Positions 3,368 through 45,430 are shown, counted from the first letter of the stretch. The stretch: DNA of 64,000 nucleotides from Candidatus Melainabacteria bacterium 17Bon1m (GCA_032128875.1 JAVLKG010000001.1:1081453-1145452); one strand, 5' to 3'. Notes: generated by a model not told the origin, from the sequence alone. Translations and numbers: made by a program.

Positions 3368-3395
3368 TGGTTTCGTCATTACCCTTGGCGGGAAT
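3368..3395 (+). promoter_or_regulatory. Putative SigB/SigF-type promoter
   Basis: TGGTTT-N16-GGGAAT, ~50 nt upstream of the TadE-like gene. Confidence 0.6.
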
Positions 3396-3445
3396 AGTTT
3401 GATCACCGGGAAGCTCGTTGATACGGCGTGCGTGAGGATGGAAAA

Positions 3446-3964
3446 GTGAAGGCTTTCAAGAGAAGAGGGCAGTCGATAGTCGAACTGTGCGTCGGACTGA
3501 TGGTTTTGGTCCCGATTGTACTTTTGGTCTTCGACCTCGCCGTCATCGTAATGGCAGTTCAAGTCAACGATTCAACCTGCCGCGAAGCTGCTCGTGTCGC
3601 AGCTTCAGGCAATCTTGGCGACCTGGGTCCACCCAAGAGTTTGCCGCTCAATGGTTCTGACATCTACAAGCGTGCCGACGCAGTTGTAAAGCGAGCGAAT
3701 ACTCAGTCGGCGGGCATTCTTTCCAACTTCAAACTGCAGTCGGTGACGACTACTCCGCCTGAAGCGTCCATCGCAGCGACAATCACATCTCTTGGTGTGA
3801 CTGGTGGACCGGTGAGCGGCACAGTCACTGTCGTGACGACCGTGGAAGTCAGACCATTTCTGGTCAAGTATGCGTATAGCGGTGGCGCACCCTTGGTATT
3901 CCAGTCGGCGCAAAGCTTCCCGTTCACTTTCGTAGTGCCGAATTCAGCCAAGCTGACGCCGTAG
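3446..3964 (+). CDS. TadE/TadG-like pseudopilin
   Basis: KRRG|QSIVE prepilin-like motif, hydrophobic helix, CREAARVAA; GTG 3446 follows GAGGA (ORF track starts at 3428). Confidence 0.8.
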   Translation: MKAFKRRGQSIVELCVGLMVLVPIVLLVFDLAVIVMAVQVNDSTCREAARVAASGNLGDLGPPKSLPLNGSDIYKRADAVVKRANTQSAGILSNFKLQSVTTTPPEASIAATITSLGVTGGPVSGTVTVVTTVEVRPFLVKYAYSGGAPLVFQSAQSFPFTFVVPNSAKLTP

Positions 3965-4077
3965 ATTTTGCAAAAGAGCCTCTGCTTCCTAAAGATCATG
4001 GGCTCCGTCTCAAAACGCGTTGTGCAACTTACAACCTGAAGGCCGAGACTGCAAGAAGCAGCGAAAACAGACATAAC

Positions 4078-4106
4078 AAAAGGGGCGACGCTTATGCATC
4101 GCCCCT
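4078..4106 (-). terminator. Intrinsic terminator after rplA
   Basis: AGGGGCGA/TCGCCCCT stem followed by a short T-run on the minus strand. Confidence 0.7.
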
Positions 4107-4142
4107 AATACTTTGTTTTGTCTGAGTTCTCAGCTACTTAGC

Positions 4143-4865
4143 TTATGCAGCCAGGTATTTGCCGAGTCCTTGCAGTGCAGCAACATCGAGCTTCAGTCCA
4201 GGACCCATTGTCGAGCTGAGGTAAACAGCTTTGATGTAGGTTCCTTTTACCGACGCCGGCTTCACTTTGTTGATAGTGTCAACAACGGCAGCCAAGTTCT
4301 TCAGAAGTTTGCCTTCGTCGAACGAGAGTTTGCCGATTGCCATTTGAACGAGACCGCCGTCTTTCTCAGCGCGGAAGGAAACCTTACCGGCTTTGAGTTC
4401 TTTGATGGTCTTAGCGATATCGAAAGTGACGGTGCCATCTTTCGGGTTCGGCATCAAGCCGCGTGGTCCGAGGATTTTACCCATCTTCGAGAGCATGAGC
4501 ATGGCGTCCGGAGTTGCGACGAGCTTGTCGAAATCCATGAAGCCTTCGCCGATTTTGGCGACGAGGTCATCGGCTCCGACTACGTCGGCACCGGCTTCGG
4601 TCGCTTCGGTCAGCTTCTCACCTTTGGCAACAACAGCGACGCGAACGTCTTTGCCGGTGCCGCCTGGCAGATTTACTGTGGAGCGAATTTGCTGGTCATT
4701 CAGCTTGGGATTGATGCCCAGTCTGAAGTGCACTTCGACCGTGGGATCGAATTTGACAGTTTTTTCGTCCTTGAGAACCTTGAATGCTTCTTCTGCAGTC
4801 AAAGGATTTGGATATTTCTCTTTGATTGCTTTCAAGGTCTTTTGGCGCTTGGTGAGCTTAGCCAT
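4143..4865 (-). CDS. rplA: 50S ribosomal protein L1
   Basis: KFDPTVEVHFRLG, LPGGTGK, ILGPRGLMPNPKDGTVT, SSTMGPG. Confidence 0.98.
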   Translation of the reverse strand: MAKLTKRQKTLKAIKEKYPNPLTAEEAFKVLKDEKTVKFDPTVEVHFRLGINPKLNDQQIRSTVNLPGGTGKDVRVAVVAKGEKLTEATEAGADVVGADDLVAKIGEGFMDFDKLVATPDAMLMLSKMGKILGPRGLMPNPKDGTVTFDIAKTIKELKAGKVSFRAEKDGGLVQMAIGKLSFDEGKLLKNLAAVVDTINKVKPASVKGTYIKAVYLSSTMGPGLKLDVAALQGLGKYLAA

Positions 4866-4903
4866 GATCCGAGTTCCTTACTTCTTCTTCTTGTAATTTG
4901 TGA

Positions 4904-5326
4904 CTACTCTTGGACTGTGATGCCCATGTTGCGGGCGGTGCCTCTGACCATTGCTTCAGCGGCTTCAATGGTTGTTGCATTGAGGTCGGGCATTTTGATC
5001 TTGGCGATTTCGGTGATTTTTTCTTTGGAAACCGAACCAACTTTGGTCTTGTTCGGGTGAGAAGAACCCTTTTCGACATTCGCGGCTTTCTTCAGAAGTT
5101 CTGATGCCGGCGGCGTTTTCAGAACGAAGTCGAAAGAGCGATCTTCGAATACGGTGATTTCTACCGGTACGATCGTCCCTGCCTTGTCCTGTGTCTTGGC
5201 GTTATATTCCTTGCAGAACTGCATGATGTTTACGCCATGTTGACCGAGTGCAGGTCCAATAGGCGGCGCGGGGTTTGCTTTACCCGCTTGGATTTGCAGT
5301 TTGATTTTGCCAACTACCTTTTTCAC
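4904..5326 (-). CDS. rplK: 50S ribosomal protein L11
   Basis: [44 protein letters not shown]. Confidence 0.98.
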
Positions 5327-5394
5327 GGCCCTAGATCCTATATATGTCGAGAATTACTGATTTTATGGCACATTGGACATCCAATGCATCACTT

Positions 5395-5955
5395 TTAGAC
5401 TTTAATAACCTGGTTGAACTCCAGTTCTACTGGGGTCGCGCGACCGAAGATGATGACTGACGCCTTGATTCGCTCGCGTTCGAGGTTGACTTCCGTTACC
5501 TCTCCTGTAAAGTCTGCGAACGGTCCGCCCGTAATACGAACGTAATCGCCCACCTTGACATCGATGACAGCAGGCTTTTTGCCTTTGACACCGGTAACGG
5601 CCATTTGCCGTCTCAAAATCTTTCTGATTTCACCGTCCTGCACTGGGACTGGTTTCTTTCCTGCTCCAACGTATTTCGTTACGCCTGGTGCTTCTCTGAC
5701 TACTCGCCAGGAATCGTCGTCCAGGATCATTTCAACGAATACGTAGCCCGGGTATTCACGCTCTTTCTTTTCAACGCGCTTACCGTCTTTGACCTTGGTC
5801 ACCATTTTTTCCGGAACAATGACGCCGAAGATTCTATCTTGCGCATTCATCGTCATGATGCGCTTTTCGATATGCTCCTTCACTTTATTCTCGTGCCCGG
5901 ATGCAGTTTGCACGGCATACCAACGCCTCTGTCCGTCACTGTTTATGAAAGCCAT
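5395..5955 (-). CDS. nusG: Transcription termination/antitermination factor NusG
   Basis: WYAVQTASGHENKV, YPGYVFVEM, KOW motif GGPFADFTG, IFGRATPVELEF. Confidence 0.97.
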   Translation of the reverse strand: MAFINSDGQRRWYAVQTASGHENKVKEHIEKRIMTMNAQDRIFGVIVPEKMVTKVKDGKRVEKKEREYPGYVFVEMILDDDSWRVVREAPGVTKYVGAGKKPVPVQDGEIRKILRRQMAVTGVKGKKPAVIDVKVGDYVRITGGPFADFTGEVTEVNLERERIKASVIIFGRATPVELEFNQVIKV

Positions 5956-6021
5956 CGTCCCTTACTTTCCTTTTTATTAGTACAAGCGACCTTGCACTTA
6001 GTTCGAGGGTCTACCAATAAC

Positions 6022-6486
6022 CTAGTGGTGTAGCCCGACTCCGCCACCGTGCAATCTTGCCCAGTGTTCGAGCGGACCAAATATCGCGTGAGATAAAAAC
6101 CAGTCAAAACCGAGAACTGCAACGGTGATCAATGCCACCAAGAAGAGCACACTGAGGGTTTCCTGAATAACCTGTTGTCTGCCTGGCCAGGTTATCTTCG
6201 TGAATTCGACAACTACATCTTTGAGGAACTGGCGGATGTCTTTCAGTGACTCACCAAGTTCGATCTCGGTATCGTCGATCGCCGCCTTCTTTTGTTCGCC
6301 CTTTTGATTCTTAGGCTTTTCGTTCTTGTCTTTGCCTTTTGCGTCGTCCTTCACTTTCTTTTCCTTGGGCGCTTCGTCTTTCGCTTTTGCTTCGGCAGCG
6401 TCATGACCCGATGACTCTTTCAGAACATCACCCTCCGTCAATTTTGTTGACGGGGTTGAGCCTTTATCTTTTTTCTCAGTAGACAT
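6022..6486 (-). CDS. secE: Preprotein translocase SecE with long charged N-terminal extension
   Basis: FLKDVVVEFTKITWPGRQQ motif plus one TM helix; located between tRNA-Trp and nusG. Confidence 0.92.
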   Translation of the reverse strand: MSTEKKDKGSTPSTKLTEGDVLKESSGHDAAEAKAKDEAPKEKKVKDDAKGKDKNEKPKNQKGEQKKAAIDDTEIELGESLKDIRQFLKDVVVEFTKITWPGRQQVIQETLSVLFLVALITVAVLGFDWFLSHAIFGPLEHWARLHGGGVGLHH

Positions 6487-6542
6487 CAATATGTTTGGTC
6501 ATCCGAAGTGAAGATGAAACTAAAGGACTGGCCTTAAAAATT

Positions 6543-6613
6543 CGCGCCTCCAAGGAATCGAACCCTGACTAAAGGTTTTGGAGACCTCTGTTCTACCATT
6601 AAACTAGAGGCGC
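6543..6613 (-). tRNA. trnW: tRNA-Trp (CCA), 3' CCA not encoded
   Basis: GCGCCTCTAGTTTAATGGTAGAACAGAGGTCTCCAAAACCTTTAGTCAGGGTTCGATTCCTTGGAGGCGCG: 7-bp acceptor stem, anticodon loop CT-CCA-AA, GGTTCGATTCC T-arm. Confidence 0.96.
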
Positions 6614-6777
6614 ATTTTGCGCATTTACTTTGACCCGACCAGGCAAGGTCGGACAAAGTCAGAAGCCGGTCGGACACGTCAAGTGTCAGTTGTCTTGAAA
6701 TCCGAGAGGTCATCAACCTCTTTGGATCCTGGGCGTCGGGACTTCAAAGTCGAGCCCCTGCGTCCGACCGCTTGCGA

Positions 6778-6945
6778 TTAGCGCTTGGTTTCTTTGTGCT
6801 CGAGGTGCTGACGGCACCATTTGCAATACTTGTTGATGCTGAGTCTGTCCGGATCGTTCTTCTTGTTCTTCATCGACGTGTAGTTGCGGCGTTTGCAAGT
6901 GCCACAAGCAAGCGTGATGATGATCCGGTCGTCCTTCTTGGCCAC
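6778..6945 (-). CDS. rpmG: 50S ribosomal protein L33, zinc-ribbon form (55 aa, absent from the ORF track)
   Basis: Hand translation [58 protein letters not shown] start with GGGAG upstream. Confidence 0.97.
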
Positions 6946-7162
6946 GGCTTTCTACTCCCTTTCTAGCTCCCAACCGGCTAAATACAGCCTAGTGTGCATT
7001 GTCGATTGGTAATTGCGCGTTCAGCCGAAACTGAATCTTGTCTTTAGTGTTGCCGGTCTATGCTGCCAGTCTTAAAGAAACGCTCGAAGTCAAAAATTGA
7101 CTGCTGCGTTGTCTGAAAAAACCGCACAGACCAAAACGGCCTCCGGGGAGGCGTCAATGCAA

Positions 7163-7192
7163 AGTATATCTAACCAAGAAAAAATCTGTCAA
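7163..7192 (-). promoter_or_regulatory. Sigma70-type promoter for the rpmG-trnW-secE-nusG-rplKA unit
   Basis: TTGACA-N18-TATACT on the minus strand, ~220 nt upstream of rpmG. Confidence 0.7.
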
Positions 7193-7306
7193 CAATACTA
7201 GAATTGTGGCGTGTTACAAGCGATTACCCGACCCTCGTCCACCCCAAAACACTCGAAATCAAGCCGAATTCAATCGGTGAACTAAGCGGAAGTTAATACT
7301 CTTTCA

Positions 7307-8932
7307 GTGAGAAATTTTTCGATTTCTTCCAGTTTGTTAAAAATAGTATTTTCAAAGCTGGCTCTGGTAGCGGCTTTTGGGACGGTTGCGCTGACTTCTT
7401 TGACCGGATGTGGAAACACCGGCGCTAGTTACGAGCCTGATACATTCCGCATCAATTTGCAGGCAGAACCCCCGAGTCTCGATTGGCAAACCTCTACCGA
7501 CTCGACTTCTTTCGATGTCGTTTCCAACATCATGACCGGCTTGACTATGTACAACAACGACATGAAGTGCGAGCCGGGCTGTGCTGAGTCTTGGGAAATC
7601 CTGGACGGCGGCAAGCACTATGTTTTCCATTTGAGGAAAAACGCCTTGTGGACTGACGGAAAGCCCGTCACCGCCCACGATTTCGAATACGCGTGGAAAC
7701 GTCTCTTAGATCCTTCAACTGCAGCTTCTTATGCTTTCTTCCTTTATGACATCGAAAACGCTTTTGAATTCAACTCCGGAAAAGTAAAGGATCCTAATTT
7801 GATTGGCGCGAAGGCGCTTGACGACTGGACGTTTTCCGTCAAGCTCAAACGCCCGGCCGCGTATTTCCTTTATTTGACTGCGTTTTGCTCAACATGCCCG
7901 TTGCGAAAAGACATTGTCGACAAATTCGGCGATCGTTGGACGGAGCCTCAAAACATAGTCACCAACGGACCTTTCTCAGTATCGCTCTGGAAGCATGAGT
8001 ACAAAATTGAGTTGACTTCCAATCCGAAATTCTTCGAAGGCGAGCCCCGGCTCAAGAGAATCAAGATGTTCATGATTCCAGAACAAGCCACGGCTTTTGG
8101 ACTCTTCGAGAACAATCAGCTCGATTATGTCGACAATCGAAGCTTCCCGACCGCTGATGTCGAGAGCCTGCGCAGCTCCCCTATGTATCGCAACCTTCCT
8201 TTGCTGCGCTGCAGCTATCTTGGCTTCAACGTCAAAAAGAAGCCCTTTGACGATAAACGTGTTCGCAAAGCGATTTCGATGGCAGTAGATAGAACGCTGT
8301 TTCCAAAAATCCTTCGGCGCGGCGAAGCGCCTGCATTCACTTGGATTCCACCGGCATTGGAAGGATATTCGGAAATTTCCAAAAGCGAATTCAATCCCGA
8401 AGCTGCCAGAAAACTTTTAGCGCAAGCTGGATATCCGAATGGTAAAGGCTTTCCTTTGACCAAAATTCTCTATCCCCAAAGAGAAGACGCCAAGCTGGTT
8501 GTAGAGTCTGTACAAGAACAGATAAAGAAGAATCTAAATGTCAAATTGCAGCTCGAAGTAAACGAGTGGAAGGTCTATCTCGACATTCTGCACCGAGATC
8601 CGCCTCAGATGTTCAGACAGACCTGGGGCGCTGATTATCCAGATCCGGAGACGTTTATGAACGTCTTCACTACTCACAATGGCAACAATTACACGCAATG
8701 GTCGAATGCTCATTATGATGATTTGATCGACAGAGCTGCCGCCGAGCAAGATCAAAAAAAGCGCGCGGCGATGTATGCAGAAGGGGACCAGATGCTCTGT
8801 CAGGACGAGGTTCCTATTGTTCCGCTTTATTGGGCAACGCAAAATACAATGGTCAAACCCTGGGTTAAAGGAATTGGTTTTAACGCAATGGATCTGCAAT
8901 TTTTTAGGAAGGTGTACATAGAAAAGCCGTAG
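7307..8932 (+). CDS. oppA: Oligopeptide ABC transporter substrate-binding lipoprotein
   Basis: Lipobox LTGC, family-5 SBP motifs WTDGKPVTAHDF, VTNGPF, WGADYPDPETFM; exact start uncertain. Confidence 0.92.
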   Translation: MRNFSISSSLLKIVFSKLALVAAFGTVALTSLTGCGNTGASYEPDTFRINLQAEPPSLDWQTSTDSTSFDVVSNIMTGLTMYNNDMKCEPGCAESWEILDGGKHYVFHLRKNALWTDGKPVTAHDFEYAWKRLLDPSTAASYAFFLYDIENAFEFNSGKVKDPNLIGAKALDDWTFSVKLKRPAAYFLYLTAFCSTCPLRKDIVDKFGDRWTEPQNIVTNGPFSVSLWKHEYKIELTSNPKFFEGEPRLKRIKMFMIPEQATAFGLFENNQLDYVDNRSFPTADVESLRSSPMYRNLPLLRCSYLGFNVKKKPFDDKRVRKAISMAVDRTLFPKILRRGEAPAFTWIPPALEGYSEISKSEFNPEAARKLLAQAGYPNGKGFPLTKILYPQREDAKLVVESVQEQIKKNLNVKLQLEVNEWKVYLDILHRDPPQMFRQTWGADYPDPETFMNVFTTHNGNNYTQWSNAHYDDLIDRAAAEQDQKKRAAMYAEGDQMLCQDEVPIVPLYWATQNTMVKPWVKGIGFNAMDLQFFRKVYIEKP

Positions 8933-9031
8933 GGCCGATGGCATTGATCATCGCTGCGAACGCCGGTGGGTCATCCACTTCGAGATATACAAGCCGCCGT
9001 TACAATTAAACCTGGGGAGAGACGACGCCGA

Positions 9032-10852: not shown

Positions 10853-10976
10853 ATATGGTGGGCTTCGCAAGTGCGAAGAGAGATGACTTGTTGAGGGAGT
10901 GGATTCCTAACTCAACATGCCGTATTGCAGCGGGGGCGCGGCTCCGGGGTGAAACTAAGGACAATGGCTAATAATT

Positions 10977-11004
10977 TGGTTTTTCAGCCATAAATAAAGG
11001 GTAC
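10977..11004 (+). promoter_or_regulatory. Putative SigB/SigF-type promoter
   Basis: TGGTTT-N16-GGGTAC, ~45 nt upstream of ATG 11048. Confidence 0.6.
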
Positions 11005-11047
11005 ATGGAATAACGTGAGTGTGGATTCAGGGGAGGGTGTGCTCGAA

Positions 11048-11896
11048 ATGACGCGCCACGGCAGACTGCCGAGAATTTTTAGCCGAGCAGCTTTATTGAC
11101 TTTGGCTCTGGTACTGCCTTTTATAGCGTCCGTTGCACCGGCGCAGGCTGATGACAAGGGTTGGGTCCTGACCCAGAAGAGTCTGATGATGGGCGACATG
11201 TATTTATATGTCAGTCCCTCGGGCTTCAAGTTCGTCAATCCCAAAGCTGGAGTCAACTTCGTCACCCGTTCTCCGAACTGGGACGTGATTATGTTCAACG
11301 ACCGCACCAAAGTCTGCTATTCGGCAACCCTGGACACTTTTAAAAAACAGGTCACAGCAAATCTGCCCCAGCGCCGATCGGAGCTGGGCGCTGCCAATTG
11401 GCAAAAAGGCTCCGTGTCCAATATCGCAAATCTAAGAGCCACTCAGTATGTGATGTCGGACGCTGCAGGCGTGCAAGCGCGAGTCGCTGCCAGAAAGGGC
11501 CAGCGCGTGCAGCAGCATCTCAAGGGGGCAGATTATTGGGTGTGCGAGGAGATTCAAGTACCTCCACAGTTGGCTGATTTGATTTCCAGCATGTACGGGT
11601 TGCCTAATACATTGAATGTGCCGCTCCGGTTGAGCGTCACGACCGCCGAGCAGGGCACCAAAATGCAACTTGATACTTATCGCTCTCAAGCGTGTCCAAT
11701 TCCGATATCTTATTATTCGATGCCTAGCGGCTATCGTCCGGTGAAGAGCAGCGTTGAAGTGATGGCTGACGAGGATACCAAGCAAATTATTGATGATATG
11801 GCTAAAGACCTCAGCAATGAAGGCGGAGGGAATAACAACAAGCCGATTACGAATGAAGACCTGGACCGCTTCCTGAATAAGTTCAAGAAGCGCTAA
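11048..11896 (+). CDS. Hypothetical secreted protein
   Basis: Signal peptide ending APAQA; GGGAGG upstream; no family recognised. Confidence 0.75.
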   Translation: MTRHGRLPRIFSRAALLTLALVLPFIASVAPAQADDKGWVLTQKSLMMGDMYLYVSPSGFKFVNPKAGVNFVTRSPNWDVIMFNDRTKVCYSATLDTFKKQVTANLPQRRSELGAANWQKGSVSNIANLRATQYVMSDAAGVQARVAARKGQRVQQHLKGADYWVCEEIQVPPQLADLISSMYGLPNTLNVPLRLSVTTAEQGTKMQLDTYRSQACPIPISYYSMPSGYRPVKSSVEVMADEDTKQIIDDMAKDLSNEGGGNNNKPITNEDLDRFLNKFKKR

Positions 11897-11911
11897 ACGA
11901 GGAGAAATTTT

Positions 11912-14164
11912 CTGAACCTGCAGCGAGTAAATCTCAAGCTTTCTCACAAGGGACTGATTCTGGTTTCGGTACCTCTGCTGTTTGAGTTGATCTTCTTGCT
12001 CACTCTGACAATGCTCTTGAGGCAGGCGGAAATTGAGGTTCAGCGCCAGATTCGTTCGAAGGCGATCATCTCCCAGGCTAACACTCTCTCGAAACTTTTC
12101 TACGACGCCGGTGTGGCGATGGGTGGATATTCAATCACCAAATCGCCATTGTTCAGCGACCGCTATGACAAGATTGTGCGCCAGATTCCGCAGGATCTTA
12201 ACGAACTGAAGAGCTTGGTTGGCGACAATCCCAGACAGCAAAAGATTCTGGAAAACCTTGCCGATATCACGGTTACCGGTTTGAAAATCCTTGGTGAAGC
12301 AAAAGCGGCGATTGACGACAACCGCGTCGACGTAGCGCAATTCCGCGCCCGGCATATGTACAAGGAAATCCGTTCGCTGGCTGACCGACTGCAAGACGAA
12401 TTGCGCGGATTGACCGAAGACGAACGGAAAATAGAAAGTGAATCGCCCGAAGTTCAAAACAGAAACAGAGCAACAGTAAAGTTATTCCTTGTAGTCGGCG
12501 TAGTCTTCAACATCTTGCTGGCAGTAGCCCTTGCCCTTTTCTTCAGCCGCGGGATCGGCCGCCGTTTGAATGTTCTTACAGACAACTCAATTCGCTTGGC
12601 TCGTGGCGAACCGCTCAATCCGCCGCTTACAGGCGGCGATGAAATCGCTCACTTGGATGGTGTGTTCCACAGCATGGCCGACGCGCTCACTGAAGCATCG
12701 CGTAAAGAGCGCGCCGTTATCGAAAATTCCGCCGACGTAATCTGCTCGATTGACATCGACGGCAAATTCGTAGCCGTCAGCCCTGCATCTATGACGATGT
12801 TCGGCTTCTCGCCAGACGAGCTGATGGGCAAGCGTTTTATCGATTTGATTATCCCTGAGGACGTACAAGAAACCATCAAAGCTGTTCGCGCCATCCGCGC
12901 AGAGCAAGCAACGATGAATTTCGAAAACCGTATCAAACGGAAGGATTCGTCGACAGTTACGGTGTTGTGGTCAGCTTACTGGTCGGAATCAGAGCGTTCG
13001 ATGTTCTGCGTCGCGCACGACATCACAGAGCGGAAATTGGCTGAAGAAGCCACAAAAGCCTCTGAAAAGAGAATCAGAACAATCATCGAAAACATGCTTG
13101 TCGGTTTGATTATCATCAGTCCGGATGGCATCATCGAATCTGTAAACCCGCGCACAGAGCAAATCTTTGGTTTTACATCCAGCCAGATGGTCGGTCGACA
13201 TTTGATGTCGCTGTTCACAGAAGCAAGGCTTTATTCGATGAACAGCCGCGAGGATCTGCAGAAGTTTATGGACAATATGTTCCATAAAGCGCTTAACAGA
13301 GTAGGTGAATTCGACGCGTTAAAACAGACGGGAGAAGACTTCCCGATCGAGCTTTCGCTCTCTGAGTTCAACATGGCAGATGGTCGTTTTTACTTGGCGA
13401 ACATTCTCGACGTTTCTGAAAGACGAGAAGTAGAGCGCTTGAAGAAAGAATTCGTATCTACAGTTTCTCACGAACTGCGTACTCCGCTCACATCCATCCG
13501 TGGTTCTCTCACCCTCCTCAACGTTGGCGCGTTGGGCGCTTTGCCCGATCAAGCCATGAAGGTAGTGAACATTGCGGAAAGAAACACGATTCGTTTGATC
13601 GGCCTTATCAACGACATTCTCGATATCGAAAAACTCGAATCCGGAAAAATGGACATGGTCTTCCAGGATGTTGAACTCAACTCGGTTCTTGATCGTTCGT
13701 ACGAATCGGTGAAGACTTTCGCCGACAACAATGGCGTTGTCCTTGAAATGGTTCCTTCCACCATTCGTGTAAACGCAGACGGAGACCGACTTGTACAGGT
13801 TATCGTCAACTTGATGTCCAACGCCTGCAAATTCTCACCCAAGGGTGCGACCGTCACAGTGCGGGTGGATGAGATTCCAAACTGGATCGAAGTGAAGGTA
13901 ATCGACCGTGGACGTGGTATCCCGGCGAAATTCAAAAACCTTCTTTTCCAGCGATTCCAACAGGTCGAAGCCTCTGACGCCAAGCGAAAAGGTGGTACCG
14001 GTCTCGGTCTTGCCATTTGCAAAGGTATCATCGAGGCACACGGCGGCACAATCGGTGTAGATTCAGAAGAAGGCAAAGGCTCCGTTTTCTGGTTCCGCAT
14101 TCCGCCCGCTCAAGCAGGGTCCAAAGTCGTTGTCCCGGGCGAGAAGGAAAAGATGGTTTCGTAG
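11912..14164 (+). CDS. Membrane sensor histidine kinase (periplasmic helical sensor, HAMP, 2 PAS, HisKA, HATPase)
   Basis: VSHELRTPLTS H-box, NLMSNACKF, DRGRG, GGTGLGL, GDEIAHL HAMP; start extended to CTG 11912 behind AGGAG (ORF track 11987). Confidence 0.92.
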   Translation: MNLQRVNLKLSHKGLILVSVPLLFELIFLLTLTMLLRQAEIEVQRQIRSKAIISQANTLSKLFYDAGVAMGGYSITKSPLFSDRYDKIVRQIPQDLNELKSLVGDNPRQQKILENLADITVTGLKILGEAKAAIDDNRVDVAQFRARHMYKEIRSLADRLQDELRGLTEDERKIESESPEVQNRNRATVKLFLVVGVVFNILLAVALALFFSRGIGRRLNVLTDNSIRLARGEPLNPPLTGGDEIAHLDGVFHSMADALTEASRKERAVIENSADVICSIDIDGKFVAVSPASMTMFGFSPDELMGKRFIDLIIPEDVQETIKAVRAIRAEQATMNFENRIKRKDSSTVTVLWSAYWSESERSMFCVAHDITERKLAEEATKASEKRIRTIIENMLVGLIIISPDGIIESVNPRTEQIFGFTSSQMVGRHLMSLFTEARLYSMNSREDLQKFMDNMFHKALNRVGEFDALKQTGEDFPIELSLSEFNMADGRFYLANILDVSERREVERLKKEFVSTVSHELRTPLTSIRGSLTLLNVGALGALPDQAMKVVNIAERNTIRLIGLINDILDIEKLESGKMDMVFQDVELNSVLDRSYESVKTFADNNGVVLEMVPSTIRVNADGDRLVQVIVNLMSNACKFSPKGATVTVRVDEIPNWIEVKVIDRGRGIPAKFKNLLFQRFQQVEASDAKRKGGTGLGLAICKGIIEAHGGTIGVDSEEGKGSVFWFRIPPAQAGSKVVVPGEKEKMVS

Positions 14165-14371
14165 AAGCAGGGCTGCGCCAGGGCAGCAGGTCGCTTTTGA
14201 AAGAGCCGGCGAACCGTATGACTTGTCTGCGTTTCCTGAATCTGCATTCTTAAGGACAAAGAGCTCCAAAACCCCGAATCTGTGGGGAATTATGGCGCTC
14301 AAAGTTTTTTGTTAGATCTGCAAAACCGGGTATATGAAAATTGTAGGCACGCGAGCGGGGCTGATATCAGC

Positions 14372-14737
14372 ATGAAAGTTCTCATCATCGATGACGAGGA
14401 AGACACACGCAGTATTGCCGCCATGAGCTTGAACATTCTCGGCGGACTTGATGTTGTGGAAGCGGAAAATGGCAAGGTTGGCGTCGAAAAGGCGGCAGCA
14501 GAGCAGCCTGACTGCATTTTGCTTGATTGCATGATGCCTGTGATGGATGGCGAAAGCACGCTTGCAGAGCTGCTCACCAACGAGCATACCAAAGGCATTC
14601 CGGTGATATTCCTCACCGCGAAAGCTATGACCAGTGAGATTGAGCGCCTAAAACGCTTGGGAGCAATCGGAGTTCTGACTAAGCCGTTTGACCCTACAGC
14701 GCTGGCAGGGCAAGTAAAAGCGCTACTGGGGAGATAA
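14372..14737 (+). CDS. Single-domain response regulator
   Basis: VLIIDDE, ILLDCMMPVMDG, FLTA, KPF. Confidence 0.92.
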   Translation: MKVLIIDDEEDTRSIAAMSLNILGGLDVVEAENGKVGVEKAAAEQPDCILLDCMMPVMDGESTLAELLTNEHTKGIPVIFLTAKAMTSEIERLKRLGAIGVLTKPFDPTALAGQVKALLGR

Positions 14738-14746
14738 GCCGGCTAC

Positions 14747-16405
14747 ATGCAAGAGTGGAAAGAGACATTCGGAGAACTGAAAGAGCAGTATGTCAGGCGC
14801 TCGTCGGAGCGGCTCGGCAAAATTGTCGAGATGGTGAGCCTTCTCATTGAAAACCCCAGCGACATCGAGACCGTCAAACAGTTGACCCGACATTTCCACT
14901 GGCTGGCGGGGTCCGGCACTATGTACGGCTATCCGGCTGTGTCGATGCTCGGCTCTGAAGGTGAATCTCACTGCGAGCAGGTTATACGAGGCACCTTGCC
15001 TCAAGCCGATGTAGACAGATTGAAAGCCCTTCTTCACGAGCTTTCTTTCCAATTCTCAGAACAGGACGCTCCTCCGGATACGGTGACCTTGAGCCCCAGC
15101 GCACCGCCGGAGCAAAAGCGTACTGAAAACGACATTCTTATTGTGGGCGAAGATCAAACCGATCTGCAAAACATGGCGCGCCTTGTCGAGGCGGAAGGCT
15201 ACCCTGTGCGCACAGCGCGCTCGATGTCTACTGCCGTTAACGAAATTCAGGCAGAGCTGCCGATTGGCGTAATCATTGAGATTCCACTGCCGGACGGCGA
15301 TTGCTATGAAATGGTTGAGCAGATTCGCTCCATGAATGGCGGCGACGAGCCGGCGATCATTATATTGTCGAAGCGAACCGGCTTCCTCGATAAAGTCCGC
15401 TCAATTCACTGCGGTGCCGACTCGCACTTTGAAAAGCCTATTGATACAAAGGCAATGTTGCGGCGTCTGCGCTATTTGCTGGATAAGCACAAGAAAGAAG
15501 TCGTCAAAATTTTGTCCGTGGAAGACGATCCAGATCAAGCCGCCTTCATTCGAGCTTTCTTGGAGTCTGCCGGATATCAGGTTCGTACTGTCACTGATCC
15601 AAAACACTTCGAGTCTGCTTTGTCGCAGTTCCAGCCGGATCTCGTCCTCCTTGATGCGATGTTGCCGGGTGTCACCGGTTATGAGTTGGCTCGCTTCATC
15701 AGGCAAGACGAGCGCTATGCCACGTTGCCGGTTCTGTTCCTGACGACGCAGGGACACCTGGAGGCGCGTATCGAATCTGCCAGAGCCGGCGGCGACGACC
15801 ACCTCGTAAAGCCGGTTCCGCCGGCGCTTTTGCTCTCTGCTGTTTCGTCTCGCATCGAACGTTCTCGCTTTCTGAAAACTCTCTTGCACCGCGATGGTTT
15901 GACCAGCATGCTGAATCACTCGGCATTCATGGACCAGGCTCAGCGTGTCATTGCCGAAAGAAAGCGCCGCAACGAACATACAGCACTGATTGTTGTGGAC
16001 GTCGATTATTTCCGGTCGATTAACGAACGCCACGGATACCCAGGCGGAGACAAGGTTCTACAGGCACTTTCGTTGCTCTTGCGCAGGCGTGTCAGGCAGT
16101 CTGACATTCTTGGTCGCATCGGTGGAGATGAGCTAGCTGTCATTGCCGAAGGGCTTGAAGAGACAGAAGCCGTCACTTTGGCGAGCCGATTGATCTCTGA
16201 TTTCCAAGGAATCAGTCACACTACACCATCGCATGTCGGTTTTTATGCCACCTTGAGCGCAGGCGTTTGCATGCTCGATCCGAAAACTATGGATCTCGAA
16301 GGTTGGATGGGCGAGGCGTACAAAGCGCTCAAGCAGGCTAAAGACTCCGGTCGAAATTGCGCCGTAGCTGCACCAAGCAATCGCAATCAGCCCGTAAGCA
16401 AATAG
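14747..16405 (+). CDS. Hpt-REC-REC-GGDEF diguanylate cyclase-type response regulator
   Basis: FHWLAGSG (Hpt), atypical REC (IIEIPLP), canonical REC (LLDAMLP), DGLT, RQSD I-site, GGDEL. Confidence 0.88.
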   Translation: MQEWKETFGELKEQYVRRSSERLGKIVEMVSLLIENPSDIETVKQLTRHFHWLAGSGTMYGYPAVSMLGSEGESHCEQVIRGTLPQADVDRLKALLHELSFQFSEQDAPPDTVTLSPSAPPEQKRTENDILIVGEDQTDLQNMARLVEAEGYPVRTARSMSTAVNEIQAELPIGVIIEIPLPDGDCYEMVEQIRSMNGGDEPAIIILSKRTGFLDKVRSIHCGADSHFEKPIDTKAMLRRLRYLLDKHKKEVVKILSVEDDPDQAAFIRAFLESAGYQVRTVTDPKHFESALSQFQPDLVLLDAMLPGVTGYELARFIRQDERYATLPVLFLTTQGHLEARIESARAGGDDHLVKPVPPALLLSAVSSRIERSRFLKTLLHRDGLTSMLNHSAFMDQAQRVIAERKRRNEHTALIVVDVDYFRSINERHGYPGGDKVLQALSLLLRRRVRQSDILGRIGGDELAVIAEGLEETEAVTLASRLISDFQGISHTTPSHVGFYATLSAGVCMLDPKTMDLEGWMGEAYKALKQAKDSGRNCAVAAPSNRNQPVSK

Positions 16406-16443
16406 TTTAGTAAAGTTTGCAATGCCGCTTGCAACCAATTGTA

Positions 16444-16524
16444 GGCTTTGCAGTCCTTCCGGTTCTTGCGGTTCTTTTGGTCCTTGCAGTCTTTTCAGTG
16501 TTTTCGTACTTTGCAATTCTTCTT
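16444..16524. repeat. Imperfect 9-nt tandem repeat (~9 units)
   Basis: ggctttgca gtccttccg gttcttgcg gttcttttg gtccttgca gtcttttca gtgttttcg tactttgca attcttctt. Confidence 0.6.
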
Positions 16525-16652
16525 CCGTTTGAGTAAAACATTCTGGTACTAAATACGGTGCTGCATATTTGTGTTTCGGACTTGGGTTAAACGTGTGAAA
16601 CTTCTGACAAAACCTCGTAGAATATTGCTTTCACTGGCGAAGACGGCAAACT

Positions 16653-17759: not shown

Positions 17760-17777
17760 GGAGAACGAAAGTAATCT

Positions 17778-19028: not shown

Positions 19029-19091
19029 TGGCTTGCAATTGTTTTTGATTTGAAAAATGTCCCTTAGTTGAAAGATATGGAGGTCACAAAG

Positions 19092-21659
19092 ATGAAAGCG
19101 GTGATCATGGCGGGAGGATCTGGAACCCGGCTGAGACCTCTAACCAGCAACCTTCCGAAGCCAATGGTGCCGGTTTATAACGCGCCGATGGCGGAGCATA
19201 TCGTCAATCTTTTGAAGACGCACGACTTCAAAGACATTATTTTTACCCTCCACTATTTGCCGGATTCGATTCGCGATCACTTTGGTGATGGAACCGATTT
19301 TGGTTGCAAGATTTCGTACTCGGTGGAAGAAGGAAAACCGCTTGGAACTGCGGGTTGCGTCAAGCAAATACAAGATCAGCTCGATTCTACTTTCGTTGTT
19401 ATTTCCGGTGACAGTTTGACCGACATGGACTTGACCAAAGCGGTCAAATTCCATAAAGAGAAGAAATCAAAGGCTACTTTGATCTTGAAACGTGTTGAAA
19501 GTCCGCTCGATTATGGTGTGGTCATTGTCGACGGAGAGCAGCGCATCAAGCGCTTCGTAGAGAAGCCCGGTGCATCTGAGATTTTCTCCGACACCGTCAA
19601 TACCGGTACATATATTCTCGAGCCTGAAGTTATGCTCTATGTCATTCTGGGGCGTGAGCAAGACTTCTCCAACGACCTTTTCCCGCTTCTCCTTTTGAGA
19701 AACGAGCCCATGTACGGTTATGTTGATGATGGCTACTGGTGCGACATCGGTAACCTTGCCGTCTATCGCCAGGCTCACCAAGATGTGCTCGAAGGAAAAG
19801 TAAAACTCAAGAATCGCTCGTCAGAAATTCGTCCTGGTGTTTGGGTCGGAGAAGGCACCGAAATTGATGCTTCAGTGAAGATCGAACCGCCGGTCATCAT
19901 CGGTCGCAACTGCCGTATTGGACGTGATGCAGAGATTGATCAATTCACGGTTTTGGGCGACAACGTTGTTGTTCAAGAGAAGGCCACTCTGAAGCGTCCG
20001 GTGATTTGGTCCAACTCTTATATCGGCAGCAATTCCAATTTAACGGCCTGCGTAATTTGCAACGGTGCGACAATTCATAATTCAGTTGAAATTTTGGAAG
20101 GTGCCATAGTCGGCGCTAACAGCAATATTGGGCAAGAAGCTCAAATCAGCCCAGATGTGCGCATTTGGCCGGATAAACTTATTGATTCCGGCGCACGCGT
20201 AACTTCCTCTGTCATATGGGGAACCAAAGCACCACGCACCTTATTTGGTGCCCACGGTGTTCGTGGTTTGGCCAACATTGATATAACTCCGGAATTCGCA
20301 GTCAACCTGGCGGCTGCATACGGTTCTACCCTGAAGTCGGGACCAGTGCTGGTTAGCCGCGATTACTGGAGAGTCAGTCAAATGATTTCCAGAGCGGTCG
20401 TATCCGGTCTTGTTTCTGTCGGCGTCGAGGTTCAAAACCTTGAGTCTATGTCTTTGCCGATTGCTCGGTATTACGTCAAGACCCAGCGCGCAGCAGGTTT
20501 GATGCACATTCGTGTGTCTCAGAGAGAACCAGACAAACTCTCGATTGAATTCTTCGACAGCGAAGGCATTGCGATTACCAAAGCAATGGAGAGAAAAATC
20601 GAGACCACATTCTTCAAAGAGGACTTCCCTCGCTGCTTGCCTGCAGATGTAGGCAGCATCACCTTCCCGAGCCGCGTACGTGAATACTATGCGGACGAAT
20701 TCTTGAAGCACGTTAAGGGACAAGTTTTTGAAGAAGACAAAGTTCCATTCTGTATCGTGCCTGGAAGCAACTACACGAGAAAAACCAAATCCGGTGCTAT
20801 CGCAACACAAGCGCCCAAAGTTGTAATTGACTACGCGATGGCCGAGACCGGCGTACTGCTGCCGGACTTGCTTGGACAAATAGGTATTGAAACAGTTGTT
20901 CTCAACTCTTCAATCCGCAACATGCCACCACGTCCTGAAGAAAGAATCGGCATGCGTAAGCAACTGGCTGATGTGGTCAAGGCTCTCAATGCGGAGCTTG
21001 GCGTACAGGTTGGACGCAATGGTGAACAAATGACATTGGTCGATGAGACCGGTCAGATTATTCGTGGCGAACTTCTTCTTGCCGTCGTTGCAGACATCAT
21101 TCTGCGCGATAAGCCAGGGCGCTCTATAGTTGTGCCGGTCAACAGCAGTTCTTCAATCGAGCGTATTGCTGCTCGTTATAACTGCCGCGTAGTTCGCTGT
21201 AAAGCGTCGGAAACAGAAATCGGCAGCACCACAGCGAAGTTAGAAGGAGCAGTCCTGGGTGGAAGCGCAAACGGTTGCTTTATCTTCCCAGAATTCCAGA
21301 ATGGCTATGACGCCATGTTCACGGTAGGACAAGTTCTCGAACATTTGACCTACCAGGGACGTACGTTAAGTGAAGCAGTCGCAGACTTGCCGCCGCTCAT
21401 CTATCAAGTCGATTCTGTTCACTGCCCGTGGGAAAGAAAGGGTCGCGTAATGCGTCTCCTGGTGGAAAAACATCAGGATCGACCGATGGAGCTTTTGGAC
21501 GGCGTTAAGATTCAGACTCGCCCAGAGCACTGGATTTTGGTCTTGCCAGATGCGGTAGAGCCGCTTGTGCACGTCTATGCCGACGGCTTGGACTTGCAGC
21601 AGACCTCAGCCGACTTAAATGAATACACTCAACTAGTCCGTTATCTCCAAAACGCCTAG
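19092..21659 (+). CDS. Sugar-1-phosphate nucleotidyltransferase (GMPP-like) + left-handed beta helix + phosphohexomutase-like fusion
   Basis: MAGGSGTRLRPLT..PKPM, PLGTAG, YWCDIG, hexapeptide repeats, LFGAHGVRG, CPWERKGRVMR..DGVKI. Confidence 0.9.
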   Translation: MKAVIMAGGSGTRLRPLTSNLPKPMVPVYNAPMAEHIVNLLKTHDFKDIIFTLHYLPDSIRDHFGDGTDFGCKISYSVEEGKPLGTAGCVKQIQDQLDSTFVVISGDSLTDMDLTKAVKFHKEKKSKATLILKRVESPLDYGVVIVDGEQRIKRFVEKPGASEIFSDTVNTGTYILEPEVMLYVILGREQDFSNDLFPLLLLRNEPMYGYVDDGYWCDIGNLAVYRQAHQDVLEGKVKLKNRSSEIRPGVWVGEGTEIDASVKIEPPVIIGRNCRIGRDAEIDQFTVLGDNVVVQEKATLKRPVIWSNSYIGSNSNLTACVICNGATIHNSVEILEGAIVGANSNIGQEAQISPDVRIWPDKLIDSGARVTSSVIWGTKAPRTLFGAHGVRGLANIDITPEFAVNLAAAYGSTLKSGPVLVSRDYWRVSQMISRAVVSGLVSVGVEVQNLESMSLPIARYYVKTQRAAGLMHIRVSQREPDKLSIEFFDSEGIAITKAMERKIETTFFKEDFPRCLPADVGSITFPSRVREYYADEFLKHVKGQVFEEDKVPFCIVPGSNYTRKTKSGAIATQAPKVVIDYAMAETGVLLPDLLGQIGIETVVLNSSIRNMPPRPEERIGMRKQLADVVKALNAELGVQVGRNGEQMTLVDETGQIIRGELLLAVVADIILRDKPGRSIVVPVNSSSSIERIAARYNCRVVRCKASETEIGSTTAKLEGAVLGGSANGCFIFPEFQNGYDAMFTVGQVLEHLTYQGRTLSEAVADLPPLIYQVDSVHCPWERKGRVMRLLVEKHQDRPMELLDGVKIQTRPEHWILVLPDAVEPLVHVYADGLDLQQTSADLNEYTQLVRYLQNA

Positions 21660-21687
21660 CTATCGTGGGGGCGTTGAGTACCGTGTC

Positions 21688-23685
21688 GTGAGTTCGCAAG
21701 ACGAAATCAAAACCGGCGAAGTCTCTATTAATGACCGGACTTTAGTCAATGTGTCCGACAATCCAGCCTTGGCTGATCCGCTTGTGCAAAATCAGTTGAG
21801 CGAAGGTCAGGTTCTCGCCGGTAAGTACAAGATTGTGCAATACGTCGGCGCTGGCGGAATGAGCGTTGTATATAAAGCTCGCGATCAAGTTTTGTCCCGA
21901 GATGTTGCTATCAAAATGCTTTCCGCTTCGCGTGTTTCAGACGATAAGAGCGTTCGTAGATTTCACCAGGAAGGCACAGCGGTTGGACGGCTCAACCACC
22001 AAAACATTGTTAGTGTTTACGATGTTGGGCTAACGGAGAACGGCGAGCCGTTTCTCGTCATGGATTTTGCAAAAGGAAAAACACTTACTGAGCTAGTCAG
22101 TTTTTCCGGAAGATGTTCACCGCTGCGTGCTTTGCATCTCATCAATAATGTTCTCGATGCACTGGTGCACGCTCATGAAAAGGGCGTTGTACACAGGGAT
22201 TTGAAGCCCGGCAACATAATTGTTTCCAATCCCGGAGAGGCAAATGAGTTTGCCAGAGTTTTCGATTTTGGCATTGCAAAACTCATGCCCGGAGCTGATA
22301 CCACCAGTAGTGAACTGACTCAAACTGGAGAAATCTTTGGAAGTCCGCTCTATATGAGCCCTGAACAGTGTCTTGGTAAGGCTCTCGATGGGCGCTCAGA
22401 TATCTATTCTGTTGGTTGTATTCTCTTTGAATTACTTGTCGGTCATCCGCCACATCAAGCAGAGACTTCTGTTGAAACGATCATCAAACATGTTCAAGAC
22501 CAAGCGAAATCGCTCAAAGAATCTTGCCCAGGAGCAAGATTTGATGAGGGTCTTGAAGATGTAGTTCGCAAAGCATTATGCAAAAATCCTGCAGATAGAT
22601 TTCAAACTTCAAAAGAGATGAAAGATGCAATTGAGCAATTGATTGATGCTTCGAATAGTTCACGTTTGGAAGCGACCCAAAGACAAAAATTGTTTGGTCT
22701 ATTCGAAAAGGATTTACTAACCGTCGGGATCGTTGGTGGACTCTGCGTCTTGGGCATAGTCTTGATCGGCGTACTGGGCTGGTTTACATTTTCTTCTTTC
22801 TCGCAGAAGAACAAACCGCTGCGCACGGATATGAATTCGGGCATGATGCGTTATGCGGTCGATGAAGCTCAAAAAATTACCGAGCGCGAAAACCTTGGTG
22901 CTGACGAACGTGACCAATCGTTCCATTTCCCTGACGGTACTGCTGCTCTCTCCTATCAAGACATTGATGACACCGTTGTCGGCAAACTGACAAATACAGC
23001 TGGCATCAGCAAAATCGACATTAACCACAGCAGAGTGACAGCGTCTAAATTGTTGCTCAGTTACTTTTCGCGCCTGGAAGCAACATCCGTGAACATGGTG
23101 GGAAGCAAGTTTGATTTGGAGTTCTTGCGCGCCTTGTCGCGAATGAAAACGCTTCGTGTCCTGGAGATCTCTGACTTGGAGGAGCCGCTGACTGAGGCGC
23201 AAATGGAGCTTATCTGCGACGTGCCTACCCTGCAAGAACTTTGGTTGAGCCGTTCCATAGAATCAGACGAGGCGCTCAAACCCATTGTTAAGCTCAAAAA
23301 TCTTCTCACGCTCGATTTGTCGAGGTGTAAGGTCACGGACAAAGCGATGGAGTACGTAGGTCAGTGTCAAGCCTTGCTTCGCCTGGATATGAACGGTGCC
23401 AGGGTGAGTGGCACAGGTCTGCGAAGACTCGCCGGTTTAAAGAAGCTGACGTCTCTCGATATAGCCAACAATCGAATGTCCGACCAAGACGTTGACGGGA
23501 TTTGTGCTTTGTCTGGTCTGAGGAATTTAAACCTCGAAGGCAATAACATTACGGACTCAGGACTAATGAATCTCACTAAGCTGAAGAAGCTGGCGGTCCT
23601 GCGACTGGAGCGATGCCCGAAAATTACGCACAGCGGTATTTCGAAGTTTCTCGCGGTGCTGCCCCATTGCTCGGTTAAGCGATAG
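21688..23685 (+). CDS. Ser/Thr protein kinase with TM helix and C-terminal leucine-rich repeats
   Basis: GAGGMSVVY, VAIK, HRDLKPGN, DFG, YMSPEQ; TM near residue 350; LxxLxLxxxxITD repeats. Confidence 0.92.
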   Translation: MSSQDEIKTGEVSINDRTLVNVSDNPALADPLVQNQLSEGQVLAGKYKIVQYVGAGGMSVVYKARDQVLSRDVAIKMLSASRVSDDKSVRRFHQEGTAVGRLNHQNIVSVYDVGLTENGEPFLVMDFAKGKTLTELVSFSGRCSPLRALHLINNVLDALVHAHEKGVVHRDLKPGNIIVSNPGEANEFARVFDFGIAKLMPGADTTSSELTQTGEIFGSPLYMSPEQCLGKALDGRSDIYSVGCILFELLVGHPPHQAETSVETIIKHVQDQAKSLKESCPGARFDEGLEDVVRKALCKNPADRFQTSKEMKDAIEQLIDASNSSRLEATQRQKLFGLFEKDLLTVGIVGGLCVLGIVLIGVLGWFTFSSFSQKNKPLRTDMNSGMMRYAVDEAQKITERENLGADERDQSFHFPDGTAALSYQDIDDTVVGKLTNTAGISKIDINHSRVTASKLLLSYFSRLEATSVNMVGSKFDLEFLRALSRMKTLRVLEISDLEEPLTEAQMELICDVPTLQELWLSRSIESDEALKPIVKLKNLLTLDLSRCKVTDKAMEYVGQCQALLRLDMNGARVSGTGLRRLAGLKKLTSLDIANNRMSDQDVDGICALSGLRNLNLEGNNITDSGLMNLTKLKKLAVLRLERCPKITHSGISKFLAVLPHCSVKR

Positions 23686-23823
23686 GACGACTGGACCGAT
23701 AATATGGTGGAAACGCAGCGGGGCACGAATCCCCGTTTCGAGTGATTTTTGCCGCATTCTCGAGGTGAAACGTCGTCCGCCCCAGCAAATCAGTGTTTCA
23801 GCTTGCTGCATAGAACCATAAAG

Positions 23824-23851
23824 TGGTTTTGACCTTTAAATGTAAGGGTAA
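23824..23851 (+). promoter_or_regulatory. Putative SigB/SigF-type promoter
   Basis: TGGTTT-N16-GGGTAA, ~60 nt upstream of ATG 23910. Confidence 0.6.
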
Positions 23852-23909
23852 AGGATACTTTGAGACTGGTTGCAAAAAATTGGCTTGCAGCCGAAAAGGA
23901 GGCCGTCTG

Positions 23910-43220: not shown

Positions 43221-43223
43221 CGA

Positions 43224-44105: not shown

Positions 44106-44172
44106 ATTGTAGAACCCTAAGGCAGATTAGCAAACAAAAAGATTAATCGCCAGTGCTTGGAAATATGAATTG

Positions 44173-45405: not shown

Positions 45406-45430
45406 TTCGCCCTTCAGCCAAATTCATGAC

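Follow-up and report, generated by a model that had tools for sequence, protein, structure and literature searches.

In a stretch of 64,000 nt from Candidatus Melainabacteria bacterium 17Bon1m (GCA_032128875.1, JAVLKG010000001.1:1081453-1145452; the whole stretch is called the window below), we found three copies of the bipartite motif TGGTTT-N16-GGGWA that are very probably real promoters read by an alternative, group-3 sigma factor of the stress/motility type. The explanation that we consider best, with a probability of roughly 0.55, is that they are promoters of the SigB/SigF/SigJ kind belonging to a small regulon, with a sigma factor encoded in the pil operon as the ancestral reader and a paralogue of this sigma as target or co-reader. 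The host assembly (7.55 Mb in 35 contigs; Obscuribacterales) was searched for photosynthetic reaction-centre genes and none was found; the host is a non-photosynthetic relative of cyanobacteria. TGGTTT-N16-GGGWA has exactly three matches in the window, all on the plus strand (3368-3394, 10977-11003 and 23824-23850) and each in an intergenic region; with the complete -10 hexamer they are:

3368..3395, plus strand: P1, -35 box TGGTTT at 3368-3373, a 16-nt gap and -10 box GGGAAT at 3390-3395
10977..11004, plus strand: P2, TGGTTT-N16-GGGTAC
23824..23851, plus strand: P3, TGGTTT-N16-GGGTAA

These are the positions, spacing and orientation given for three TGGTTT-N16-GGG(T/A)A sites in the original prediction, which is confirmed on all three counts. 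It had also placed the sites 45-60 nt upstream of starts, and this is borne out: counted from the last base of the -10 hexamer, the start judged most plausible lies about 50 nt away for site 1 (GTG 3446), about 43 nt for site 2 (ATG 11048) and about 58 nt for site 3 (ATG 23910). A purine-rich ribosome-binding site can be read before each of these starts. The three site-bearing intergenic regions were searched for sigma-70-like promoters and none was found in any of them. When the window was shuffled 100 times with preservation of dinucleotides, 0.04 matches to TGGTTT-N16-GGGWA were expected and none of the 100 shuffles reached three. Transcription is predicted to start at about 3401-3404 (P1), 11010-11013 (P2) and 23857-23860 (P3). 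The -10 box of P1, read as GGGAATA, also fits the heptamer of the J-Box, the extended -10 element of SigJ in Nostoc punctiforme.

In the mechanism that we propose, a group-3 sigma would recognise GGTTT near -35 and GGG(A/T)A near -10, separated by a fixed gap of 16 nt, i.e. GTTTNN-N14-GGGWAN in hexamer notation, which is the geometry of Bacillus SigB promoters, and the transcript would begin a few bases past the -10 box. The pil-operon sigma would itself be made from a housekeeping-type promoter, and its paralogue would be one of its targets, probably acting as a feed-forward or auto-amplifying co-reader of overlapping specificity.

A genome-wide scan of spacing and placement, the check proposed with the original prediction, gave an enrichment at N = 16 in gene-facing intergenic sequence only. 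GGTTT-N-GGGWA was counted for N = 10-23 in four compartments (gene-facing, non-facing, coding sense and coding antisense), defined by a set of longest open reading frames (ORFs) of at least 90 aa obtained by greedy choice (6190 ORFs, 88% of the genome). The gene-facing intergenic compartment contains 13 matches at N = 16 versus 1-7 (mean 3.0) at other spacings (Poisson P = 1.6e-5, or 1.1e-3 without the three discovery sites), and only 2 intergenic matches at N = 16 point away from genes. Within coding sequence there are 2 sense and 2 antisense matches at N = 16 versus a mean of 13.3 at other spacings, a depletion with P = 0.003. A functional promoter class is expected to show both features, an excess specific to spacing and orientation and avoidance within genes. 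For the exact motif, three of the eight matches in the genome lie in a 20.5-kb span of the window itself, a fourth is directly upstream of the second SigF-like sigma gene, and only one of the eight is clearly inside a gene (window site 3 was scored as 'inside' because the crude ORF caller over-extends that start). The peak is given only by the 5-mer GGTTT; loose 4-mer classes (GATT or GTTT with GGGHAT or GGGHAV) show no clear peak at N = 16 in this genome. Among the 64 words of the form NNN[ACT]ATA, GGG[ACT]ATA is the most orientation-biased in the genome (228 gene-facing versus 66 non-facing; binomial P = 3e-14). A position weight matrix (PWM) was built from the informative columns of an orthologue alignment, its training sequences including two of the window sites; at 14 bits or more it found 26 gene-facing and 4 non-facing sites, and 26 + 26 in the roughly five-fold larger coding space.

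Conservation was analysed with orthologues of the three first genes (a TadE-like pseudopilin gene behind site 1, the gene behind site 2 and the gene starting at 23910 behind site 3), which were drawn from 60 other genomes of the same family, 30 loci being kept per gene. An unseeded Gibbs sampler, run on 60 upstream regions (-160 to +5) of TadE-like and 23910 orthologues, returned GaTTnaA-N13-GGGaATA in 5 of 12 restarts, and GGGNA stands in register in 45 of the 60 aligned regions (hand count). The pattern G[AT]TT-N16-GGGNA occurs within 230 nt upstream of 15/30 TadE-like, 22/30 site-2 and 23/30 23910 orthologues, and of 29/30 paralogue sigma genes. At the other spacings from 11 to 21 it was seen in 0-3 of the regions for the three window genes (0-5 with the paralogue sigma included), and on the opposite strand of the orthologous upstream regions it was not found. 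The boxes stay while the spacers differ freely between genera, which makes this a phylogenetic footprint. Where present, the motif of the site-2 orthologues reads GTTTyy-N14-GGGTA(C/A), and that of the 23910 orthologues, which is kept in 15 of the 19 genera sampled (hand tally), is mostly GATTnAA-N13-GGGCATA; in most genera the TadE-like and 23910 orthologues carry a J-Box-like GGGAATA or GGGCATA. Over 89 orthologous sites, GTTT pairs with GGGNA followed by a base other than T and GATT with GGGNAT (cells 52/12/1/24, hand tally), a pairing that hints at two promoter dialects.

The genome encodes two group-3 sigmas, one in the window and a paralogue at C3:434780-435670, which are ~38% identical to each other. 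The features of the first are:

43224..44105, minus strand: pil-operon group-3 (SigB/F/G-like) sigma gene, between pilC and the ABC transporter/pilD genes, with regions 2, 3 and 4 above cut-off; the candidate reader of the motif across the class
44106..44134, minus strand: sigma-70-like promoter of this gene, TTTGCT at 44134-44129, 17 nt, TACAAT at 44111-44106

Since the ATG at 44105 abuts the -10 box, the true start of the pil-operon sigma is probably downstream of 44105. TTGATA-N16-TACAAT in the gap between pilC and the sigma gene recurs in many of 78 related loci. Both sigmas lack region 1.2; in the paralogue regions 2 and 4 are above cut-off and region 3 reaches only 20 bits (<25.3). Both proteins score below the cut-offs of TIGR02980 (234.35) and NF005644 (261), with 205.7-206.2 and 223.8 bits, respectively, for the pil-operon sigma and 173.9-174.4 and 198.3 bits for the paralogue. 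TIGR02980 is the second-best family for both, far above group 1/2 sigmas (141 bits or less). The pil-operon sigma was found at 80% identity or more in 80 Obscuribacterales loci. Both sigmas are present in most genomes of the family (the paralogue in 55 of 61, hand count), and in a comparison across families the paralogue was found in 12 of 13 family genomes versus 0 of 67 genomes from ten other families of Vampirovibrionia.

A phylogenetic tree was computed from 58 rows (40 group-3 sigmas across the phylum, the two host sigmas with their relatives, and two group-2 outgroups); it is a quick maximum-likelihood tree, drawn with midpoint rooting and supported only by the Shimodaira-Hasegawa-like approximate likelihood ratio test (SH-aLRT), and its deep forks are weak (80) and its root is not established. 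The paired group-3 sigmas of presumed oxygenic cyanobacteria form one clade (SH-aLRT 98) with both host sigmas outside, so that neither host sigma is a one-to-one orthologue of SigF or SigJ. The pil-type sigma groups with the single group-3 sigma of other Vampirovibrionia (SH-aLRT 91) and looks like a vertical descendant of the group-3 sigma of the phylum; the paralogue sits on a long separate branch (SH-aLRT 100). 'Oxygenic' here denotes ten genomes so taken by inference, on the grounds of genome size, completeness and NF005644 scores. Their 19 group-3 sigma genes score 335-422 on NF005644, in contrast to the two host sigmas, and of 21 other sampled genes 20 have no score above 227 (G076, among the oxygenic candidates, reaches only 226.9). 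NF005644 was rejected as an anchor separating SigF from SigJ, both cyanobacterial paralogues passing its cut-off, and orthology was read from the tree only.

As to which sigma reads the motif, the original prediction had named the pil-operon sigma. It is partly supported in that the motif persists in three lineages in which only the pil-type sigma was found (the small-genome genus g5, sister family f20 and genome G023), before homologues of two of the three genes; it fares less well in that the exact motif precedes the gene of the paralogue and not that of the pil-operon sigma. The 23910 orthologue of g5 has retained GATTTA-N13-GGGCATA, which in two genomes scores 20.4 and 21.1 bits versus 13.6 for the 99.9th percentile of the null. 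The site-2 homologues of f20 have GGTTA-N16-GGGTAA and GATT-N16-GGGTAT, and that of G023 has GTTA-N16-GGGAAC, the sole match of the relaxed pattern in 640 nt, located in a short intergenic gap. Because lineages without the paralogue keep the motif, our preferred reader is the pil-type sigma, which would also be the ancestral one, and we see the paralogue as a target and likely co-reader. Counted without regard to gene orientation, and uninformative for that reason, GWTT-N12-20-GGGHATA has 85 and 129 matches in the paralogue-less genomes G004 and G039 versus 79 and 132 in the reversed control; 11 of the 85 in G004 are at N = 16 versus 6-12 at other spacings (hand tally).

Several observations weigh against this reading. 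The genome total of the exact motif, 8, is about what chance would give (~7 under a uniform base model, hand arithmetic), so that the evidence resides in the placement of the sites and not in their number. The gene calls come from a crude longest-ORF set and the site numbers are small; the related genomes are not independent of each other, which applies to all orthologue counts given here. No group-3 motif was found before the pil-operon sigma gene, the PWM exceeding 8 bits in only 7 of 78 loci and at scattered positions, and neither the motif nor a J-Box was found before pilB in the window. No anti-sigma or anti-anti-sigma gene adjoins either sigma gene. The TadE-like homologues in the paralogue-less genomes G023, G039 and G055 give at best a PWM score of 7.9, a null result that counts little because these proteins, at 37-47% identity, are probably paralogues. 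In genus g5 the site-2 gene has no motif; there the gene abuts an upstream permease gene. Four runs labelled 'RNA-Seq' that cover the locus (3000-22999) had to be rejected: each yields a single near-identical contig of 60-72 kb with flat depth, i.e. DNA, possibly the source of the assembly, and they give no start, strand or level of transcription. Lastly, the best-conserved instance of all is the promoter of the paralogue itself (exact TGGTTT-N16-GGGAA here, GTTTAAA-N13-GGGAA in 29/30 family genomes), the usual signature of an autoregulated SigB/SigF-type sigma, which points to the paralogue as the reader.

The strongest alternative follows from this last point: the promoter class would be the same and be read here by the family-specific paralogue, which would activate its own gene and a small regulon including the three window genes, and the pil-operon sigma would read only J-Box-type GATT...GGGNATA promoters. 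Autoregulation of this sort is reported for Synechocystis SigF (PMC2532724) and mycobacterial SigF (bioRxiv 10.1101/2020.01.15.907535), at least in the parts of these sources that treat the sigF promoters. GGTTT is present at all three window sites and GGGTA(C/A) at two, the J-Box heptamer is present in only 1 of the 13 strict sites, and the -35/-10 pairing described above is as two readers would produce. However, this pairing is confounded by gene identity and shared ancestry, and it could equally be the usual trade-off between a strong -35 and an extended -10 under one sigma. The absence of both paralogue and site-2 promoter from g5 would also fit; yet in the g5 genomes G004 and G039 the site-2 homologue starts 1-10 nt after the stop codon of an oligopeptide permease gene, so that the loss of the promoter coincides with loss of the whole intergenic region that would bear it, and GTTA/GATT-N16-GGG(T/A)A(A/C/T) persists before site-2 homologues in the two other paralogue-less lineages. 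In addition, nine SigB homologues of Streptomyces coelicolor cross-recognise SigB-type promoters, according to the relevant section of PMC8346170. We consider a regulon read by the paralogue alone less likely than the reading favoured above, but a serious alternative.

A more elaborate scheme would assign one dialect to each sigma. In this two-tier group-3 cascade of Obscuribacteraceae, the ancient pil-linked sigma would read J-Box-like GATT-N16-GGGNATA promoters and activate the family-specific daughter sigma, which would read GTTT-N16-GGGWA (not followed by T) and amplify itself; the 23910 gene and, in part, the TadE-like pilin gene would have moved to the second dialect in this genus by promoter turnover. 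We regard this scheme as speculative and rather doubtful. If true, it would make regulon rewiring visible in sequence alone and provide an independent parallel to the SigJ -> SigC/SigF hierarchy of hormogonium-forming cyanobacteria.

That the bipartite motif is a transcription-factor site, with two asymmetric half-sites two helical turns apart, and not a sigma element appears improbable. An activator site kept at a fixed distance would be conserved and oriented just as a promoter is, and other factors may act at the paralogue promoter, where TTGTCA/TTGACA is conserved in the spacer immediately 5' of GGG (an overlapping -35 or an operator being the candidates for this element). Yet both boxes and the spacing equal the SigB/SigF consensus as presented in PMC8346170, cognate group-3 sigmas are encoded in the genome, the three intergenic regions hold no other promoter-like element, and the depletion within genes at exactly N = 16 is as expected of sequences that fire spurious transcripts. 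Chance resemblance, i.e. three unrelated occurrences of a short degenerate pattern, would suit the near-random genome total of exact matches and is hardly credible in view of the window shuffles, the restriction of the genome-wide peak to one spacing and one orientation, and the retention of the motif at orthologous positions while the spacers diverge.

The SigB/SigF-type likeness noted in the original prediction is thus substantiated as a conserved bipartite class with published boxes and spacing, in a genome that encodes group-3 sigmas. For Bacillus subtilis SigB the consensus stated in PMC8346170 is GTTTAA-N12-14-GGG(A/T)A(A/T), and Pctc has GTTTAA-N14-GGGTAT; our motif has the same boxes and geometry (GTTT at -35, invariant GGG and an A at position 5 of the -10 box), and the promoter of the paralogue, GTTTAAA-N13-GGGAAA, fits this consensus letter for letter. 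The spacing is fixed at 14 in hexamer notation here, whereas the cited range for SigB is 12-14. As among the Streptomyces SigB homologues described there, several paralogous sigmas may share promoters in our host. Differences from the SigB system are that both sigmas fall below the TIGR02980 cut-off and have no rsbV/rsbW-type genes beside them, and that the predicted regulon consists of pilus, cyclic di-GMP (c-di-GMP) and signalling genes and not of general stress genes.

Within the phylum, SigJ of N. punctiforme is described as using the J-Box GGGaAtacT with a weak AT-rich -35 at about 100 promoters, type IV pilus genes included (PMC6495340, for the portion dealing with this motif). The GGG + A + T core and the pilus link are shared with our sites, and orthologues of two of the three genes carry GGGCATA/GGGAATA in most genera. 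However, the -35 here (GGTTT/GATT) is strong, well conserved and at a fixed distance, in contrast to the weak published one, and two of the three window sites have no ATA tail, GGGAATA being confined to site 1. Synechocystis PCC 6803 SigF, also a group-3 sigma of this phylum, is autoregulated and associated with -32 TAGGC and -12 GGTAA at pilA1 and at its own gene (as far as the promoter description in PMC2532724 extends). GGTAA is contained in GGGTAA of site 3, a pilin gene is driven there and is a predicted target here, and the sigma gene is preceded by its own promoter type there as the paralogue is here; on the other hand, TAGGC is unlike GGTTT and our sites have no AG-rich tract. For mycobacterial SigF, NGNTTG-N14-18-GGGTAT is given, with sigF transcribed from its own promoter type (bioRxiv 10.1101/2020.01.15.907535, promoter section). 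A GGGTA-type -10, a T-rich -35 and, probably, autoregulation of the sigma operon are in common, whereas the mycobacterial spacing is variable and an anti-sigma gene is co-transcribed with sigF, none being seen here.

Because the boxes match the SigB/SigF consensus and resemble the J-Box and the SigF -12 element, this kind of element is already known. The promoter type is familiar and the lineage, Melainabacteria, is one where it had not been described; a search of the literature library used here returned nothing on sigma-factor promoters in Melainabacteria/Vampirovibrionia. Since these bacteria are uncultured, a promoter class defined by sequence is useful for reading regulons from metagenome-assembled genomes, and from this one it can be predicted which genes for pili, c-di-GMP signalling, kinases and proteins of unknown function are turned on jointly. 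In addition, the motif links the SigB/SigF consensus known from Firmicutes and Actinobacteria to the J-Box/SigF boxes of oxygenic cyanobacteria, which suggests that -10 specificity for GGG-N-A predates the cyanobacterial phylum, an age that a specialist would expect and not find surprising.

The regulon may comprise about 13 strict sites and perhaps 20-30 sites in all. The 13 strict gene-facing sites include the three window units and the paralogue sigma gene. The others precede the genes of a GGDEF protein of 232 aa (with secDF next in line), a giant protein of 1823 aa that carries two MshEN domains (the genome has only three MshEN genes; MshEN is a c-di-GMP-binding domain family), an MBOAT acyltransferase, a BD-FAE esterase, a 1812-aa protein without family, a 251-aa protein with a flotillin behind it, a cluster whose last member is a VWA protein, and two more units of unknown family. 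The PWM scan added 23 new first genes, of which 20 were annotated (C17:270-1055, C10:13286-13582 and C8:150547-152814 were left out); these include three Ser/Thr kinases, two more GGDEF proteins, an RHS giant, an S41 peptidase, a glutaminase, RNase III and six proteins without family, and some of the PWM-predicted members are surely false positives. GGDEF proteins account for 3 first genes among 36 sites versus 37 among the 6190 crude ORFs (hypergeometric P ~0.001), a value that is only rough because the three first genes were unscanned and one weak GGDEF lies outside the background count. The original prediction spoke of one surface-motility module. The candidate targets are indeed weighted to pilus, c-di-GMP and signalling functions, but kinases, a peptidase, an esterase and many family-less proteins are among them as well, so that this theme is plausible and not exclusive. 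A further exact motif, TGGTTT-N16-GGGAA at C11:17025-17050 (plus strand), is intergenic with no ORF of at least 90 aa within 300 nt downstream, and may drive a small protein or a non-coding RNA.

The genes downstream of the three sites, with the neighbours of the first, are:

3446..3964, plus strand: TadE-like pseudopilin gene, 172 aa (PF07811, 24 bits), N-terminal KRRGQSIVE followed by a hydrophobic helix
4143-4865, minus strand: rplA, downstream of the TadE-like gene
4904-5326, minus strand: rplK, next to rplA
11048-11896, plus strand: signal-peptide protein without a known family (its start and signal peptide were read off the sequence)
11987-14164, plus strand: CHASE3-PAS-PAS histidine kinase (Pfam)
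14372-14737, plus strand: receiver protein (Pfam)
14747-16405, plus strand: Hpt-REC-REC-GGDEF diguanylate cyclase (Pfam)
23910-24713, plus strand: 267-aa protein, no Pfam or NCBIfam family
24802-25767, plus strand: 321-aa coiled-coil and Pro/Ala-rich protein, no Pfam or NCBIfam family

A 315-aa ORF at 4113-5060 (plus strand) was rejected as spurious: rplA and rplK occupy this region on the minus strand, within a row of classical order, tRNA-Trp (6542-6614)-secE-nusG-rplK-rplA. With this ORF spurious and rplA and rplK real, the TadE-like gene is monocistronic and convergent with rplA. The four genes of 11048..16405 (plus strand) form a probable operon. The 267-aa protein has matches in 58 of 61 family genomes, and a search of a protein atlas with it returned 'hypothetical' clusters only (scores 0.84-0.87).

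Three weaker sites named in the original prediction are present in part. GGGTATA at 14328-14334 (plus strand) lies 37 nt before the in-frame ATG 14372 of the receiver protein (MKVLIIDD...) and is possibly a box of that gene's own, but there is no GGTTT at 16 nt. GTTT-N17-GGGTAA on the minus strand at 7224-7250 exists with the wrong spacing, at a distance of at least about 250 nt from the features that follow on the minus strand (an ORF of 86 aa at 6713-6973 without Pfam family, then tRNA-Trp and secE). Near 63590, also on the minus strand, the -10 word GGGTAA had been noted; it has no -35 match.

The pilus locus that contains the sigma gene (38614-51306, minus strand) is unusual. It encodes an MshEN protein of 832 aa in which a T2SSE ATPase is represented by its N-terminal part only, PilB with a double zinc ribbon at the C-terminus, PilT, PilC, the sigma, an ABC ATPase with an ABC-2 permease, PilD, and a fusion of PilM and PilN (604 aa) with a PilO-like protein after it. 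Elsewhere in the genome, a stressosome-like cluster is found at C2:55632-60529 (minus strand), linked to neither group-3 sigma. It comprises RsbRD_N+STAS and STAS proteins, two small HATPase_c_2 proteins, an HATPase_c_2+SpoIIE (PP2C) protein, an HATPase_c_2+HisKA+HATPase histidine kinase and a receiver protein; on the output side the cluster resembles a two-component pair.

GGGHATA occurs 10 times in the window versus 8.8 expected, so that J-Box-like boxes are singly not above chance. Besides GGGTATA at 14328-14334, two more were noted: GGGAATACT at 54075-54083 (plus strand) equals the published J-Box consensus letter for letter, its end lying 41 nt from the start of a caspase-domain ORF at 54125, and GGGCATA at 60625-60631 (minus strand) lies 127 nt before the gene of a 797-aa SLH-domain protein.

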